Positions 39,528-55,838 of a stretch of DNA of 64,000 nt are shown here, in pieces; positions within the stretch are counted from its first letter, which is position 1; each line of letters begins with the position of its first letter. The DNA is taken from the IMG/VR virus record IMGVR_UViG_3300033977_000098, positions 1 to 64,000 of that record. One strand, given 5' to 3'. Both the position numbers and the translations under genes were made by a program. The notes beneath the pieces were generated by a model. That model saw only the letters and a program-made list of their open reading frames with translations, had not been told where the DNA came from and did not search any database. Source of the DNA: a virus.

Positions 39528-40375
39528 TGGGCGAGAACTCCAAGATAAGTTGGACGCACCATACATTCAACCCTTGGTGGGTTTGCACGCAAGTATCCCC
39601 GGGCTGCGACCATTGCTACGCCATGGAGCTGGCGCACCGGCTTGGTTACGACTGGAACCAAAATGCGCCGCGCCTGTTCTTTGGCGAGAAGCATTGGAGA
39701 GAACCCTTGCGCTGGAATCAGCGCGCCCAAAGTCAGGGTGAACGTGAGCGCGTCTTCTGCGGCTCCATGTGCGACATCCTCGACACTTGGCAAGGCGAAA
39801 TCATTTACTCCGGTGCACCGCCCGCGCAAGAACGCGCCAGGAAGTGGTGGGGAACCGGTTGGCCGCAGGCTTGGGGCGCCCGTCCTGTCAATCTCAATCT
39901 CGCCCGCGAGCTACTCTGGGAACTAATCGACGCCACATATTGGCTCGACTGGCTTCTGCTTACGAAACGGCCCCAGGATTACCGCAAGATGTTGCCTCGG
40001 CGTTGGCTGAAGAATCCCCGTCCAAACGTTTGGATAATGACCACAGTGGAAAGCCGCGAATACCTGTGGCGACTAGATGCCATCGCCGCGATCCCCGCCG
40101 TGGTTCACGGCGTGTCGTGGGAGCCGGCGCTTGGGTACATCAACTTTATACCCTACGCTCAGCGTATGCCGTCGCTATGGGTGATTGGAGGTGGTGAATC
40201 CTGCGCTGGCTGCCGTCCTTTTGACCCCAACTGGGCCAGGCTGGTCCGCGAGGATCTGGCGCCGACCCACACGCCGTTTTTCCTGAAGCAGCTTGGGGGG
40301 CACCCAGACAAGCAAGATAAACCCGCGCGCTGGCCGCCCGACCTCCGCGTACAGCAATTTCCGGTAGTGTCCTAA
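39527..40375 (+). CDS. Phage Gp37Gp68 / DUF5131 protein
   Basis: SKISWTHHTFNPWWVC..VSPGCDHCYA, LLTKRP, WVIGGGES, FFLKQLGG. Confidence 0.92.
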   Translation: MGENSKISWTHHTFNPWWVCTQVSPGCDHCYAMELAHRLGYDWNQNAPRLFFGEKHWREPLRWNQRAQSQGERERVFCGSMCDILDTWQGEIIYSGAPPAQERARKWWGTGWPQAWGARPVNLNLARELLWELIDATYWLDWLLLTKRPQDYRKMLPRRWLKNPRPNVWIMTTVESREYLWRLDAIAAIPAVVHGVSWEPALGYINFIPYAQRMPSLWVIGGGESCAGCRPFDPNWARLVREDLAPTHTPFFLKQLGGHPDKQDKPARWPPDLRVQQFPVVS

Positions 40376-40382
40376 AATTGCG

Positions 40383-40410
40383 TTGACAACATACTTGAAA
40401 CTGCTAAACT
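40383..40410 (+). promoter_or_regulatory. tnpB promoter with its -35 inside the left TIR
   Basis: TTGACA-16-(TGc)TAAACT. Confidence 0.6.
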
Positions 40411-40456
40411 AAGAAGTGGCTGGAGGGCCGTAACCCTGCCAGCCACAAGCCAAAGG

Positions 40457-41623
40457 ATGTCGAGGCATCCGATGACCAACCAAAGTATAATCCGCCGCAC
40501 CTATCAGTTTCAACTCCGCCCTACAAAAAGACAGATTCGTTTGCTTGAATCGGCTTTGGCTGTGTCCTGTGAGGTTTACAACGCGGCTCTTCAGGAAAGG
40601 CGTGAGGCTTGGAAGCGCTGTCGCAAGAGTGTAACCGCTTTTGACCAAACTAAGGAACTCACCGAAATTAGAGCGATTCGGATGGATGTCGCAGAGTTGC
40701 CCGTCGATATGGTGCGTGAGCCGATTCGCCGGGTGGACAGAGCGTTTCAGGCGTTTTTCCGAAGGTGCAAGGCAGGCCAGAAGCCAGGGTTCCCACGTTT
40801 CCGCTTGCGGGACCGCTATGACTCTCTGGCGATGTCTTCTCCAACCTTCAAGGTTGAAGGGGGAACCATCATTGTGAGCAAGATGGGCGGCTTCAGGATG
40901 CGGATGCACCGCGAAATGCGAGGCACGCCGAAGCACTGTACCATAAAGCGCAGCGGGAAACGCTGGAGGGTTTCGATCACTTGTGAATGCGGCCCTGTTC
41001 CCGAGAGGAAGCCTGTATCTTCGGCTATTGGGATTGATTTGGGCTTGACGCACTTTCTCACGTTCTCGGATGGCCAGATAATTGACGCGCCGAAATGGGT
41101 GAAGGAAAGTGAAGCGGAAATCGCACGCAGGAACCGCGAATTGGCAACCAAAAAGCGGGGATCGCGGAATCGGCGCAAAGCAAAAGAGCAACTGAGGCGG
41201 GCGCACGAGCGCGTGGCGAATCGCCGATTGAACTTTTGCCACCACCTCTCGAAGCGGCTGATGGAGAATTTCGACCTTGTCGCTTTCGAGAAGCTGAACA
41301 TCTCCAGTATGATCAATGGAAAGTTCGATAAGAACATCTTGTCGGTGGCGTGGGGAATTCTGCTCTGGCAACTCACCTACAAAGCTGCGAACGCTGGCAA
41401 GTGGGCAGTGCCGGTCAATCCCCGAGGGACGACGAAGCGATGTTCGGGATGCGAAACGGAAGTTCCGAAAGCCTTGTGGGACCGCGTTCATCGTTGCCCC
41501 CGGTGTGGTTTGGTGATCGACAGAGACCATAATGCCGCTATCAACATACTTTCCGAAGGTTTGCGGCTCGGTAGGAGCCGTGCGGAGCCCTTGCTCCAAA
41601 GAGTCCCGTCAACGCAATTTTAG
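40457..41623 (+). CDS. tnpB: RNA-guided endonuclease TnpB
   Basis: YQFQLRPT, KPGFPRFR, RuvC IGIDLG / VAFEKL / DRDHNAAINI, CSGC..CPRC. Confidence 0.95.
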   Translation: MSRHPMTNQSIIRRTYQFQLRPTKRQIRLLESALAVSCEVYNAALQERREAWKRCRKSVTAFDQTKELTEIRAIRMDVAELPVDMVREPIRRVDRAFQAFFRRCKAGQKPGFPRFRLRDRYDSLAMSSPTFKVEGGTIIVSKMGGFRMRMHREMRGTPKHCTIKRSGKRWRVSITCECGPVPERKPVSSAIGIDLGLTHFLTFSDGQIIDAPKWVKESEAEIARRNRELATKKRGSRNRRKAKEQLRRAHERVANRRLNFCHHLSKRLMENFDLVAFEKLNISSMINGKFDKNILSVAWGILLWQLTYKAANAGKWAVPVNPRGTTKRCSGCETEVPKALWDRVHRCPRCGLVIDRDHNAAINILSEGLRLGRSRAEPLLQRVPSTQF

Positions 41624-41925
41624 GACACTACCCAATCCACAAGCGAATAAGCCCACTGGCAACCGTCATCAGCGCGACAGGCTGAGGGCACACTTGATAG
41701 CGCCTCTGAACATCATCTTCCCGTAGCAGAGCAAAGCGAAAGGACAAACCTCGTGACCACCCAAGAATCCCTTCTCGTCCAACAAAGCCGCGACCCTAAC
41801 GTGGTCATGGCCATCTTGGTCGATATTATGCTGAGAACCGTTTCTGGTCTCAGCGCCCTGCAACTTTCGTTTCTTCACCAACAACCCCGTTATATCAATT
41901 AAAATCTCTCGAAAGGAGAATCACC

Positions 41926-41990
41926 GTGGACTTCCTCAGTCAGTTCAAAGCTGCGCGCAATGCCAGCACGCCGCTCATTGCAGTCAGCCG
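41926..41990 (+). pseudogene. N-terminal fragment of an AAA ATPase-like phage gene
   Basis: Strong SD + MDFLSQFKAARNASTPLIAV, then loses coding character. Confidence 0.35.
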
Positions 41991-42291
41991 TGCGCAAATT
42001 CCGAGTCTGAGAAAGGAGCAAAACCGTGTTAGCCCAAATCCAAGCTCTCCGCGTGTTCTGGTATCGCGCCAGCGGCCAGTACGACCGCACCGTGAACCGC
42101 CGACTCGCGGAAATCCGAAAGGAGAAATCCGTGAACCCCTACACCTGCGTTGCCTGTGGCGGCGCAATCGACAACAAAGGCTTCTGCCTGAACTGCGGCG
42201 CCCAGGCCGGCACCGTCTGCCCGGTAGTGGTACAGTTTGAATTTTTTAGGGCTGTGGAGCGCACTTGAGCTTGCGGGCTCCGCTGGCACTG

Positions 42292-51091: not shown

Positions 51092-51248
51092 GTCGCTCCT
51101 GAGCTACGGTGATAGGCAACCCGAAAGCTGTATAGACGGGTTTTTTTGATTCGTCAAGCGGCAAGTCGAGGCGGTAGTGTCTTAAAAGTGCGTTGAAGCC
51201 GTCCAAATAATTCTTGATTCTCTTCCTGCCCAGTTTTAACTTGGAAGC

Positions 51249-51563
51249 ATGAAAAACAATTCGAACGGCGATAGCATTGAAGCCTTGAAAAACATGCTCT
51301 CCGAGGTGGACTTGCTTCTTTCCACTACGGAGCCCTTGCCACAGAACCGGACGCCACGATGCCGCGAATTGCTCTCCGCTGCCTTAGCTTTGGCCGATGA
51401 CCTCAGCAAACAAGAGGGAGTCTCTTCCGCCGCTGCCCTTGGCCACAAAGGGGGCAGTACCACGGCCAAACGCCATGGGCCTGAACATTATCGCCAGATG
51501 GCCGCCGCCCGCAAGACCCACCGGGGCGGCAGGCCGCGCAAGAAATCCGAACAACCGACCTGA
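51249..51563 (+). CDS. KGG-motif basic protein
   Basis: AAAALGHKGGSTT..RHGPEHY..RGGRPRK. Confidence 0.7.
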   Translation: MKNNSNGDSIEALKNMLSEVDLLLSTTEPLPQNRTPRCRELLSAALALADDLSKQEGVSSAAALGHKGGSTTAKRHGPEHYRQMAAARKTHRGGRPRKKSEQPT

Positions 51564-52299
51564 ATTCCTGCTAAAGTTTTGGTGGCCGCCTAGCCCGGCC
51601 AGGCGACAAACGGGAACCCTACCCGCTGGCGGCTACTCCCCTTTAAGGGCATCGCTGAGGGAGCGATGGCCTCTTCTGATTTCTGGCGAGACCTTGCCAA
51701 AGAATTTCGAGCCATACTAGGCTCCGAAACGCTTCAGGCTCATTGGGAATGTGACGCTGAAACCAATGAATACAAATCCAAACCACGTCCTCCAAAGTGG
51801 CAGTAGTCGCCTTCAGTTTTCCCCTGTTTCCCCCATTCCTCCCCCATTTTCCCCCCAATAAACCCCGATAGACACGCCCTATTTTAAGGCAGTATTTTGA
51901 ATGCGTTGCGGTGGAAGCCTACCCGCAGAAAGCAGAAAGGCCAGCGAAACGATTCTTGAGGCGCGTTTCGCTGGCCCTCTGAGAACTTGGGCCTAGCAGG
52001 TTCGCCGGGAACGCCCGCAAAGCAACTCCCGGAGAGTTCGAGTCGCTCGCCTGGCAGCGAGCGTCACACTCTTTGTGCTGACAAACACTAGAGTAGCACG
52101 GGGGTGTGTCAAATGCAACTCTGGATTTGGCATCTGCATGTCGCCCCACGAACAATTCGACCTATGGTGAATTAGGCCATCGAAAAGAGAGGCAATTTGA
52201 ACTTGGTACTGAAAAGAAAATCTTTACAGAATCAGAATTTGAAAAACTGCCATCAACAAAAGATCAGACCCAGATAAGCTCTCATACGGAGCCCGTCGA

Positions 52300-52572
52300 A
52301 TGAGGATTCTTCTCATCACTTACGAGTTGAAGAATAAGTTGAAGGACTATTCCTCTTTTTTCGAGGCAGTAAAAAACAACGCGCATCAGTGGTGGCACTT
52401 TCTTCCTTATGTTTACATTGTGGCGACTTCTTACTCAGCGAACGAATATGCAAATTTCTTACTCCCTCACATCCAGAGGGCTGATAACTTGTTGGTGGTG
52501 AGGATTACTGCGGAACATCAGGGATGGCTGCCGAAGGATGCATGGGACTGGCTCAACGATAAGCAGTATTAG
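52300..52572 (+). CDS. Cas2/VapD-like ferredoxin-fold small protein
   Basis: LLITYEL....DY..F...K, WWH..YIV, LLVVRI..GWL. Confidence 0.55.
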   Translation: MRILLITYELKNKLKDYSSFFEAVKNNAHQWWHFLPYVYIVATSYSANEYANFLLPHIQRADNLLVVRITAEHQGWLPKDAWDWLNDKQY

Positions 52573-52624
52573 TTTTCATCAACGCACATTCAAGACATTA
52601 CCGTCGAGGCGGTACTGGCTGAAT

Positions 52625-53204: not shown

Positions 53205-54359
53205 TTAAGCGACAGACTGCAACTCGCCGGAGGTCGCCAAAGGCCGCAGGAGATATTTCTCTAGCCAGCCAACGACTGGAACCACAACGCCGTCGCCGAA
53301 GACATGATAGGCTTCGTTATAGTTATTCGCAAGCGGGTAATCGTCAGGGACGCCCATTAGCCGCGCGGCCTCCCGAGGGGACAGGAGCCTTGTACGAATA
53401 TAGCCGTTCTCGACGATGATAACTGTTTGACGGCTTGACCCGCCCACGGGAGTTCTCAGGCATCCCGAAATACCGTCAAATCGTACTTCGGCGCACTGCT
53501 TCATAATCCCTTCACGGTTTGGACGGGTGCGCTTGTAGATGGTTCCGACATGCCGACCCGTGAGCTTGCTTACTTTCGCCACCTTAGCCCGATGCAAAGG
53601 GCGCATCAGATCAAGGACTTTTTTTGTCTCCGCGTCGCTATGCCAAGCGGTCAGGACAGGAAGCGCCTGAATTACTGAATCCAGCCGGGAAGTCGGTGCC
53701 TGGGGAATCGGCAAGTTCCACCATACCCAATGAGATCTAACAGAGGCTGCAAGGCCGTCAACGGCCCTAAGCAGTGAGTGCGGGTGCCAAGCTCCTGACG
53801 CAGATTGTTCGTAGAGACCGTTTTTCAAGTGAAGGCTGGCTTTAACGCCCACCAAAAACAATCGTGGCCGAGACTGCGGTAGGAAGCGAACCGCGTCGAT
53901 GACTAACGCCCCGACTTTATAATCTATCCCTGCGAACCCCGCGACTATGGCGGCGAAGTCGCTCCCTCCGTGAGAGGTCAGTGTTCCAACTACGTTCTCC
54001 AGAGCGATAACGGTAGGGCCACGTCCATCGCTCACCAACCGTTTAACGAGTCGCCAAAACGGTCTGAACGTGCCGCTCCGTTCTCCATTAAGACCAGCCC
54101 CTGATCCGGCTAAGGAAAGGTCCTGGCAAGGGAACGAAGCCCATACAAGATCGCATCTGCCTGGCAAGTCATCCGCTGAAAGTTTCGCCACATCCTCAAC
54201 CTTCAATTCGGGAGATGGCCCGAAAAATGAGCGATACGCCAGCGCCTTTTTCGGGCACCACTCGTTTGCGAAGGTGCATTGCCATTTGCGCCCAAGGCCG
54301 AGTCGGGCCATCCCGCCGCCTGCGAAAAACTCGTACCATGTAAATCGCCGTTCAGCCAT
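53205..54359 (-). CDS. dcm: DNA cytosine-5 methyltransferase
   Basis: EFFAGGG, SFPCQDLS, LENV, PQSRPR, GDGV. Confidence 0.95.
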   Translation of the reverse strand: MAERRFTWYEFFAGGGMARLGLGRKWQCTFANEWCPKKALAYRSFFGPSPELKVEDVAKLSADDLPGRCDLVWASFPCQDLSLAGSGAGLNGERSGTFRPFWRLVKRLVSDGRGPTVIALENVVGTLTSHGGSDFAAIVAGFAGIDYKVGALVIDAVRFLPQSRPRLFLVGVKASLHLKNGLYEQSASGAWHPHSLLRAVDGLAASVRSHWVWWNLPIPQAPTSRLDSVIQALPVLTAWHSDAETKKVLDLMRPLHRAKVAKVSKLTGRHVGTIYKRTRPNREGIMKQCAEVRFDGISGCLRTPVGGSSRQTVIIVENGYIRTRLLSPREAARLMGVPDDYPLANNYNEAYHVFGDGVVVPVVGWLEKYLLRPLATSGELQSVA

Positions 54360-54762
54360 TTCCGCCTTCCAAAAACCTTCGGATTCGATTGCGGGTGCCA
54401 TTTGCATTGACTTCGCATTCCCAGACGACAAGAGATTTCCAGCCGAGTTGCCTTAGTTCTTTTCTTACCCTCGTATCCCTCTTTTCGTTTCTCGTCCTTT
54501 TGGCCCTCCAATAATCCCGATTCGATGCTGGAAGGTCGGCGGCTCGGCATGAATGCCCGTGCCAAAAACAGCCATGCACAAAGATTACTTTATGTAATCG
54601 GCTGAAAACCAGATCGGGATGACCTGAAAGTTTCTCGGAGTGGAGTCGGTACCGAAACCCCATGTCTGACACCAAAGCGCGAACTGCGATTTCAGGCTTT
54701 GTGTCCTTCGAGCGAACCCGACGCATTATTTCGCTCCGCTTTCCTGGCGTAAATATGTCCAT
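54352..54762 (-). CDS. vsr: Very-short-patch repair endonuclease
   Basis: RSEIMRRVRSKDTKPE, GHPDLVF, FVHGCFWHGH, VVWECE. Confidence 0.95.
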   Translation of the reverse strand: MDIFTPGKRSEIMRRVRSKDTKPEIAVRALVSDMGFRYRLHSEKLSGHPDLVFSRLHKVIFVHGCFWHGHSCRAADLPASNRDYWRAKRTRNEKRDTRVRKELRQLGWKSLVVWECEVNANGTRNRIRRFLEGGNG

Positions 54763-54767
54763 ATGAT

Positions 54768-55712
54768 CTACGCTCGCAGCAATTCGCTTATACTCCAAAC
54801 GTGGTCAGCAATTCCAGCCTCCATTCCAGGTGTCACTCTCAATGTCATGTGCGGACGGCACAGGTTGTACCACGCGACATACAGAGCAACGGCTGCTTTC
54901 AGGTTGTCGAGCTTTTTGCTGAAAGCATTAACCAGTCGCGTGAATCGGCGAAGGTGCATCCGGAAATTCAGGTTGGAACGTTCCACGTGGCTGGTACAGA
55001 CGTGATCGAGATCGGGGTTGCCAGTGATGGGATTTGATACCGTGTCGATGACCTTGGCCGGACCGTACCAGTCCGGGCCAGCATTGTCCGGCTTTCCGTA
55101 CAGTTTGATGAGTTGGGCAAAGTCCACATCGGCGCCGAAACATTCCTCAATGGCTCCAATGTAGGGCTTGAAAGCATCGGAAGTTATCTGCGTTCGAGTA
55201 GCCAGCCGTCGGCTGAGGTCGGTCACGAAATTTAGGGCGCTCGGGCCGTCGCGCTTCGCCACCAAGTGAGAAATTATCAGCTTCGTGTCTGCATCCAAAG
55301 CAACCCAAGTGTAGGCGTCGCCCCATTCGTTAGAATCACTAGACTTAAGGTGTTTCTCTTTTTTGAAAACGAAGGTCCAAAGCTCATCGAGTTGAATATA
55401 TTTCGGTCGAAGGCCACGGATGCGGGTGTCAAGAAGGCTCTGACACTTCCCTCCCGTCGTCACAAGGATAGAAAGAAGCGTGTTGCGGTCTACTCCAGTA
55501 ACGCGGGATATGCCACGGATACTCATTCCCTCTACCATCAAGGATATGACCTCCGCAGTCCGATCAACGCTCAAGTAATGGCTGCCAAACCTATTGAATC
55601 GCGTGTCACTGAAAGTTGTCTTGCAATTCTGGCAACGGTAACGCTGAATCTTGTGTCTGCCGTATCTCCCAAAGCGTTTCACGTTTTCGTGCTTGCACCT
55701 AATGCAGGTCAT
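54768..55712 (-). CDS. IS1-family single-ORF DDE transposase
   Basis: CxxC..QRYRCxxC, QLDELW, ITSD, TSHVERSNL..R..RRFTR..FSKK. Confidence 0.92.
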   Translation of the reverse strand: MTCIRCKHENVKRFGRYGRHKIQRYRCQNCKTTFSDTRFNRFGSHYLSVDRTAEVISLMVEGMSIRGISRVTGVDRNTLLSILVTTGGKCQSLLDTRIRGLRPKYIQLDELWTFVFKKEKHLKSSDSNEWGDAYTWVALDADTKLIISHLVAKRDGPSALNFVTDLSRRLATRTQITSDAFKPYIGAIEECFGADVDFAQLIKLYGKPDNAGPDWYGPAKVIDTVSNPITGNPDLDHVCTSHVERSNLNFRMHLRRFTRLVNAFSKKLDNLKAAVALYVAWYNLCRPHMTLRVTPGMEAGIADHVWSISELLRA

Positions 55713-55722
55713 TGGACTCTCC

Positions 55723-55838
55723 TTGACAATCCCAGCGGAGAGTCCGACAATTGCATCGGGTCTTTCCATGCGGGCTGAATCCGCGTGGGAGATTTGCCCC
55801 GCAGACAGTTAGCCGCTGCCTGCGGGGTTTATTGTTTT
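55723..55838 (+). ncRNA. Putative antisense RNA unit opposite the transposase leader
   Basis: TTGACA-17-GACAAT, a hairpin, then the terminator CCCCGCAG..CTGCGGGG-TTTT. Confidence 0.45.

Follow-up and report, generated by a model that had tools for sequence, protein, structure and literature searches.

Organization of the tnpB unit

The DNA considered here is a stretch of 64,000 nucleotides (called the window), which corresponds to positions 1 to 64,000 of IMG/VR virus record IMGVR_UViG_3300033977_000098, a 74.6-kb record from a peat metagenome. On its + strand, positions 40363 to 41632 form a 1,270-bp unit in which a tnpB gene is enclosed by terminal inverted repeats. TnpB, from which Cas12 is descended, is believed to aid IS200/IS605 and IS607 elements, which excise without leaving a scar. 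The two arms of the unit, a left one at 40363 to 40387 and a right one at 41608 to 41632, are each 25 nt long and 100% complementary to each other, as a preliminary description of this DNA had reported, and shuffled sequences gave an expectation of 0 matches to the repeat. In the window, and likewise in the whole 74.6-kb record, the sole third match lies at 51173 to 51197 with 3 mismatches. It is the left end of a second, duplication-flanked element, and the likeness noticed there earlier amounts to 22/25 identical positions, or 17/19 over the outer 19 nt. The tnpB unit itself is present in the record as a single copy.

The tnpB gene (40457 to 41623) is intact and encodes a protein of 388 amino acids. 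Its product matched the Pfam families OrfB_IS605 (PF01385), Cas12f1-like_TNB (PF07282), and HTH_OrfB_IS605 (PF12323), all above their cutoffs, as well as the NCBIfam model guided_TnpB (271 bits; cutoff, 100). Furthermore, the structures of ISDra2 TnpB matched it at an E value of 5e-41, and its GIDLG, FEKL, and RDHNAA motifs align to solved TnpB-type chains. The three acidic RuvC residues on which the earlier claim of an intact gene had been based (Asp-189, Glu-273, and Asp-352) and the zinc-finger cysteines (Cys-324, Cys-327, Cys-342, and Cys-345) all occupy invariant columns in an alignment with 20 relatives (alignment A1; residue numbers follow the 383-amino-acid form of the protein).

At both sides, the repeats overlap sequence features of the gene, in agreement with the preliminary description. 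The stop codon TAG (41621 to 41623) is located inside the right repeat, 9 bp from the end of the element. At the left side, a promoter-like site, TTGACA-16-TAAACT (40383 to 40410), overlaps the inner end of the left arm, so that its first hexamer falls mostly within the repeat; this site is a pattern match only, with 10/12 positions in a consensus scan and a TG in front of its second hexamer. The leader that separates it from the start codon contains a strong hairpin, which can be read from the sequence at 40416 to 40446 and has 8-bp arms (GTGGCTGG and CCAGCCAC) around an inner GGG/CCC stem. This hairpin is unlike the hairpins at the 3' end of the gene, and thus the unit has no IS605-type pair of left-end and right-end hairpins. 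A search of Rfam over positions 40000 to 42000, with E values up to 1, returned no family.

Relationship of the terminal repeats to IS1-family elements

When viral contigs were scanned with a degenerate form of the repeat, a 2,957-bp element was retrieved, present in two records (L376 and L377), with perfect 28-bp ends that are identical to the repeats of the tnpB unit at 23/25 positions. This element encodes a 311-amino-acid IS1 transposase (PF03400; 34.9 bits, cutoff 24.1), and its copy in L376 has no target duplication. The viral contigs contained no exact match to a 21-mer of the repeat. Besides, the window contains a sister element at 51173 to 52602 (+ strand), nonautonomous and 1,430 bp long, with ends related to those of the tnpB unit at 22/25 positions. 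An exact 8-bp duplication, GTCGAGGC, flanks this element, the copies being at 51165 to 51172 and 52603 to 52610. Because the transposase-bearing element of L376 and L377 and the duplication-flanked element at 51173 to 52602 share related ends with the tnpB unit, the repeats are ends belonging to a lineage of IS1-family transposons that is diverse in its cargos and has shown activity on the DNA of the window. The IS1-type assignment made earlier from the sequence is thereby borne out. The sister element, itself IS1-type, has two small open reading frames (51249 to 51563 and 52300 to 52572) with no Pfam family.

An IS1-like DDE transposase gene, also pointed out before, lies on the - strand at 54768 to 55769. 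Its product scored 96.9 bits against the NCBIfam model IS1, just under the cutoff of 100, and is 45% identical over the full length to the transposase of L376 (E, 3e-96), which makes it IS1-family-like and a candidate helper in trans. Directly downstream of this gene are genes for a C-5 cytosine methylase (53205 to 54431) and a Vsr mismatch endonuclease (54352 to 54798), both on the - strand.

In a DNA run that probably derives from the source sample, two short contigs contained a related right repeat (3 differences; 41599 to 41641) joined to other DNA, and therefore related elements exist in the same peat community. One of these two contigs runs on into a diverged tnpB 3' end. In the same run, only the filled site of the tnpB unit was seen, with no joint across the element.

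Inverted repeats around related tnpB genes

The closest homologs of the TnpB protein in a large protein set were 69 to 55% identical to it, the top three being at 69%, 63%, and 62%. We examined the genomic context of relatives at more than 200 loci, which were obtained by scanning metagenome, viral, and genome contigs. Among the relatives at 43 to 59% identity, about 30 are boxed in inverted repeats of 18 to 32 bp that start with GG, and their right repeat overlaps or abuts the tnpB stop codon. Where relatives are compact, the left repeat directly adjoins the start codon, so that an IS605-type hairpin could not fit at the left end. Exact duplications of 8 to 10 bp flank the elements of L171, L183, L395 (the record of L088), L211, L215, L404, and L387.

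The ends found in this tnpB clade fall into three broad types: an IS1-like type (GGTAGTG...CTAAAA or ...CAGTTTG), to which the window element, L166, L400, L404, and L219 belong; a type beginning GGGAATTATATAC...; and a type beginning GGCTTTGCC.... Ends of the GGGAATTATATAC type are also abundant in viral contigs without tnpB, where they bound elements of 296 bp to 3.5 kb, and 31/39 of these tnpB-free elements are flanked by exact 8-bp AT-rich duplications. The autonomous members of the GGGAATTATATAC type encode a transposase of about 305 amino acids that contains DDE_Tnp_IS1595 and its zinc ribbon. Other cargos were also encountered in IS1595-type viral elements (loci L313, L272, and L312), an example being an N6/N4 DNA methylase (L313, 568 to 1419, in an element at 553 to 2439), and some of the elements have several open reading frames beside the transposase.

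In a tree of 223 TnpB proteins from the fetched loci, all repeat-bearing proteins were placed in one clade of 70 tips (support, 0.91), which contained none of the 30 classical relatives (0/30; the 3' ends of such relatives are described below). Since the relatives share inverted ends and a single clade, and some of them have 8- to 9-bp duplications, the capture of tnpB by IS1/IS1595-type DDE elements is supported as a trait of the lineage. The preliminary description had suggested such a capture by a DDE-mobilized element and had proposed that the combination of repeat and tnpB be sought across genomes; the other loci found here, some with clean 8- to 9-bp duplications, are in line with that suggestion. 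The repeat-boxed TnpB lineage is sizeable, mostly from soil and peat, and phage-borne. In a sample of 401 genomes of the phylum of an Acidobacteriota metagenome-assembled genome, for which about 4 candidates were scored per genome, a close TnpB relative (E, 1e-90) was found in the centre genome only.

Proposed guide-RNA scaffold and predicted guide

Two putative scaffold stems are located in the last codons of tnpB. Stem A (41563 to 41581) has 7 bp and a GGTAG loop (41570 to 41574), and stem B (41584 to 41597; GGAGC/GCTCC) has an equivalent hairpin in the relatives. The loop of stem A corresponds to the codons of a conserved Leu-Gly-x-Ser and is complementary to the last 4 to 6 nt of the right repeat. 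In the window, this complement is the repeat tip CTACC (41628 to 41632). We propose that loop and tip form the 5' and 3' strands, respectively, of a pseudoknot, the tip being the last bases of the scaffold.

The pairing of loop and tip is retained where the sequences change. The pair GGTAG/CTACC is found in the window and in L166, L404, L219, L172, and L167; according to end type, it is replaced by GGTCGG/CCGACC in L400, by GGCAG/TTGCC in L173, and by GGCTT/AAGCC in L211, L206, L215, and L209, and further members have GGGAT or GGGAA together with ATCCC, GTCCC, or TTCCC. The mean complementary run was 4.84 nt for true loop-tip pairs versus 3.17 nt for cross-class pairs, and the observed sum was reached in 6 of 20,000 permutations of nine class representatives, a design that sets aside relatedness within classes and in which independent changes are few, about five. 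These results come from folds of single sequences and a script; when the 3' regions were aligned with MAFFT, the alignment was rich in gaps, and RNAalifold predicted no pairs from it.

All TnpB and Cas12 guide RNAs have a pseudoknot just before the guide. In the solved ISDra2 complex, it is formed by guide-RNA nucleotides -6 to -2, which immediately precede the guide (PMC10097598), and the CTACC tip of the window would take an analogous position. Classical relatives (35 to 45% identity) have a 3' hairpin followed by AGTAGTCAC, after which the copies diverge, and TTAWC precedes their left ends. In these elements the partner of the same loop (GCTAC or GATTAC) is GTAGTC or GTAATC, which two bases separate from the variable flank, and again the two strands covary. 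Because the repeat-tip pseudoknot covaries and because the pseudoknot of ISDra2 and of the classical relatives stands immediately in front of the guide, the scaffold most likely extends over the whole right repeat, and the guide would start at about 41633 (CAATCCACAAGCGAAT...). The predicted guide is thus CAATCCACAAGCGAATAAGC (41633 to 41652), as judged from the position of the pseudoknot, and it has no second copy in the window.

A covariance model built from the last 135 nt of the classical relatives matched the repeat-boxed clade at E values of 1e-5 to 1e-11, and the window, where it aligns at stem A, at 1.8e-11. Additional pairing involves the repeat itself. A terminal hairpin of 4 bp is present in the window (GTCC at 41603 to 41606 with GGAC at 41623 to 41626), and versions with compensatory changes occur in L166 (5 bp; GGCTA/TAGCC) and L400 (11 bp). 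The inner and middle part of the repeat is paired, in members of the IS1595 type, with a conserved segment further upstream (AGAATnTATAC), behind which a nested hairpin is often present; this pairing includes G-U pairs, shows compensatory changes where the repeat differs (L181 and L189), and leaves the repeat tip as a single-stranded tail of 6 to 9 nt.

At L400 (on the same contig as L090), a second copy of the 17-nt repeat tip GGTGTTAGGACCCGACC lies 30 nt beyond the element end, about 110 nt past the right repeat. Behind this second tip, a stretch of 29 nt that comes after the first one is repeated as well, which constitutes a local duplication of the scaffold end and the presumed guide region.

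Target duplications and flanking sequences

Exact target duplications flank 8/31 tnpB elements versus 31/39 tnpB-free elements with the same ends (P = 9e-6), and three tnpB elements (window, L173, and L405) have perfect repeats yet no duplication. The flanks of the tnpB elements are also asymmetric, being A-rich and target-like at the left and not AT-rich at the right. A G is found at position -9 of the left flank in 21/31 tnpB elements versus 28/78 ends of tnpB-free elements (P = 0.003), and among the duplication-bearing tnpB elements it stands immediately before the duplication in 7/8. The rarity of duplications and the asymmetry of the flanks may partly be a matter of sampling, since exact matches of the ends were the criterion for including tnpB-free elements.

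A gene for a DUF5131 protein (phage Gp37/Gp68-like; 39527 to 40375) lies upstream of the tnpB unit and ends with three codons and a stop inside the left repeat (…QQFP-VVS*). Homologs of this protein mostly terminate 1 to 6 residues past the conserved FP. If the 8-mer at the right is dropped, the frame read across the element gives …QQFPSE*, and this read-through hints at a former duplication in the 8 nt beyond the right repeat. The closest phage relative found for the DUF5131 gene is only 43% identical, and hence no orthologous empty site is available.

Interpretation and alternatives

We consider it probable, at roughly two chances in three, that the unit at 40363 to 41632 is a nonautonomous IS1-family transposon with tnpB and its scaffold as the sole cargo, which is moved in trans and whose guide is read from the flanking DNA. 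An IS1-family DDE transposase supplied in trans would recognize the 25-bp ends and move the unit. The tnpB gene would be transcribed from the promoter overlapping the left end, and processing of the 3' part of this transcript, or of a nested one, would yield the guide RNA, which would extend via the right end into the new flank. In this RNA, stems A and B, contributed by the last tnpB codons, would precede the pseudoknot between the GGTAG loop and the CTACC tip, behind which the guide would begin. The guide would not be fixed; rather, it would be taken from the DNA beyond the repeat (from about 41633) and reset at each insertion, as in IS200/IS605 elements. By analogy with the latter, TnpB might then cleave those copies of the site in which the element is absent, for which a target-adjacent motif (TAM) would be needed just before the duplicated bases.

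Several observations weigh against this interpretation. No RNA run was found to contain the stretch. The flanks of the tnpB unit, CAATTTCC and CAATCCAC, match at 5/8 positions and do not form an exact target duplication, as the preliminary description had already cautioned. No inverted repeats were found flanking the window transposase at 54768 to 55769, which is only 45% identical to the transposase with matching ends; because repeats are not detectable around it, this gene may be a decayed or domesticated copy. The terminal hairpin of the window is weak, with its 4 bp, and was not chosen by RNAfold. According to the covariance model, the scaffold would end at 41607 in the window, and in several relatives it would end within the inner repeat. 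Finally, no consistent TAM-like motif of 4 to 5 nt was found upstream of the duplications, where only the one-sided G at -9 is seen, and since such a conserved motif is lacking, any benefit of TnpB to the DDE element is hypothetical.

Some of these observations would fit a stranded relic, that is, a unit once moved by an IS1 transposase and now immobile in a phage-like contig, where tnpB persists without serving the element. The missing duplication, the single copy in the 74.6-kb record, and a nearest transposase that has no repeats and shares only 45% identity with one that has matching ends are all compatible with such a history. However, the repeats match perfectly along all 25 bp, and the open reading frame is intact with all catalytic residues. 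Moreover, the exact duplication of the sister element points to recent activity of a compatible transposase, and the same sample contains further short contigs with related ends. We regard the relic as possible, though clearly the less probable course of events.

A bolder idea concerns how elements of this kind propagate. The transposon end being built into the guide RNA, they could spread or persist largely through the action of TnpB at the right flank and not through plain DDE hops. If this were true, it would explain why duplications are rare even beside perfect repeats and why the right flanks are not target-like while the left ones are, and the one-sided G before the duplicated site would be a minimal remnant of a TAM. 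We offer this idea as a speculation that is rather doubtful at present.

The preferred reading, a nonautonomous IS1-family transposon with a flank-derived guide, departs from the preliminary description on one point. In that description, the scaffold was thought to end at or just before GTCAAC (41607 to 41613), so that the rest of the right repeat would be a fixed guide aimed at transposon ends, namely, the left end of the unit itself and the end at 51173. The repeat as guide was also our first choice on the basis of the covariance-model end points, and it was dropped after the covariation of the pseudoknot had been found. The 3' end of the model (AGUAGUCAC) is aligned to 41607 in the window, and in relatives the model ends at GGTAGTCAT, GGGAGTCAT, or GCTAGCAACAC in the inner right repeat, motifs that resemble the classical right-end motif; besides, the left repeat has TTGAC or TTAAC, like the TTAWC that flanks classical left ends. 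Nevertheless, the model was forced end to end, and because of this it cannot decide where the scaffold ends; in L177 and L183, which are short variants, it reaches the repeat tip with high posterior. The repeat tip pairs and covaries with the loop of stem A, and a guide would not be expected to sit in a conserved pseudoknot that in ISDra2 lies directly 5' of the guide. In IS1595-type members, the would-be guide start GTATAT pairs with its conserved upstream complement. The inner-repeat motifs are found in tnpB-free elements as well and thus belong to the transposon end. Furthermore, with perfect repeats, a TAM anywhere within them would lay both ends of the element itself open to cleavage. By comparison with other TnpB systems, a guide beyond 41632 is thus the most likely case, one that the preliminary description had itself set against its model, and a fixed guide appears unlikely.

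The rival named in the preliminary description itself, an ordinary IS200/IS605 element of the IS1341 group that was moved by a Y1 TnpA and inserted 3' of TTGAC into a palindrome, so that the repeats would be host target DNA, is very improbable and largely refuted: although the left repeat ends with TTGAC and the right one starts with GTCAAC, the fused arms would form a hairpin, and such a site (TAM at the left, guide at the right) would suit the biology of TnpB, the relatives at 43 to 59% identity share the architecture and have 8- to 9-bp duplications outside the repeats, the same ends bound elements with IS1/IS1595 transposases and many other cargos, compact relatives have no space for a left-end hairpin, and a single collection of viral contigs, scanned for exact matches to the IS1595-type end pattern, yielded no empty palindrome.

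Comparison with known TnpB systems

As a probable nonautonomous IS1-family transposon carrying tnpB, the unit belongs to a class of arrangements that has been known in kind since 2023. The study of Altae-Tran et al. (2023, PNAS; PMC10691335) describes six branches of DDE-associated TnpB with inverted terminal repeats (DDE-1 to DDE-6) and also solo TnpBs inside DDE ends, presumably moved in trans. In a 2026 review (PMC13565253), ISL2, IS630, and IS1031 are given as the DDE partners of TnpB, and the reasons why the link to DDE elements is rare are discussed. Similar to the DDE-associated TnpBs of PMC10691335, the tnpB gene of the window lies between symmetrical inverted terminal repeats, with its 3' end near the transposon end; in that study, the distance from the tnpB 3' end to the transposon end is limited to 250 bp or less, and here the stop codon is 9 bp away. 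Unlike the IS630, ISL2, and IS1031 partners named in these two papers, the ends are of IS1 type in the window element and of IS1595 type in sister lineages, with 8- to 9-bp duplications. The use of the repeat tip as a pseudoknot strand is not described in the portion of PMC10691335 at hand, and a pairing of IS1 with TnpB is not named in the portions at hand of that study and of PMC13565253. A full-text literature search for TnpB with IS1595 found no paper on the pairing.

According to the same review (PMC13565253), IS200/IS605 elements have neither inverted terminal repeats nor target duplications; instead, they have subterminal hairpins and insert beside a short motif. With these elements (IS1341 group) and ISDra2, the tnpB unit shares the nuclease family and, by prediction, would also share a scaffold that overlaps the 3' end of the gene, a pseudoknot before the guide, and a guide taken from the flank. 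In contrast to IS200/IS605 elements of the IS1341 group, its 25-bp repeats are those of a DDE family, and hairpins that match each other at the left and right ends are absent.

With IS1 and IS1595 elements and their nonautonomous derivatives, both miniature inverted-repeat transposable elements and cargo-bearing ones, the unit shares ends that start with GG and the 8- to 9-bp duplications of its lineage. These families have a zinc-ribbon DDE transposase in their autonomous forms and many internally deleted or cargo-bearing derivatives. Unlike the usual derivatives, the tnpB elements carry as cargo an RNA-guided nuclease whose RNA has coevolved with the transposon end, and exact duplications are much rarer among them. 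A comparable situation, at the level of the nuclease family, is that of Fanzor proteins in transposons with terminal inverted repeats (Bao and Jurka 2013; PMC3627910), in which a TnpB-family nuclease is likewise found in DDE transposons that have inverted repeats and make duplications. Fanzors, however, are proteins of eukaryotes or giant viruses and have longer architectures.

The 2026 review raises the question of how TnpB serves cut-and-join DDE transposons, which leave duplications and breaks behind (PMC13565253). The locus described here and its relatives provide a concrete case for this question, in which the ends are of IS1 or IS1595 type and tnpB is the sole cargo. Two features make them interesting, namely, that the transposon tip would be put to two uses and that the asymmetry of the flanks is unexplained. 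If the tip is a pseudoknot strand, one stretch of 5 nt would be constrained by both the transposase and the nuclease, and the natural variants with compensatory changes are suited to mutational tests of this. Furthermore, the rule that the loop is complementary to the tip would predict where the guide starts in such elements and may thus be useful in mining for compact nucleases.

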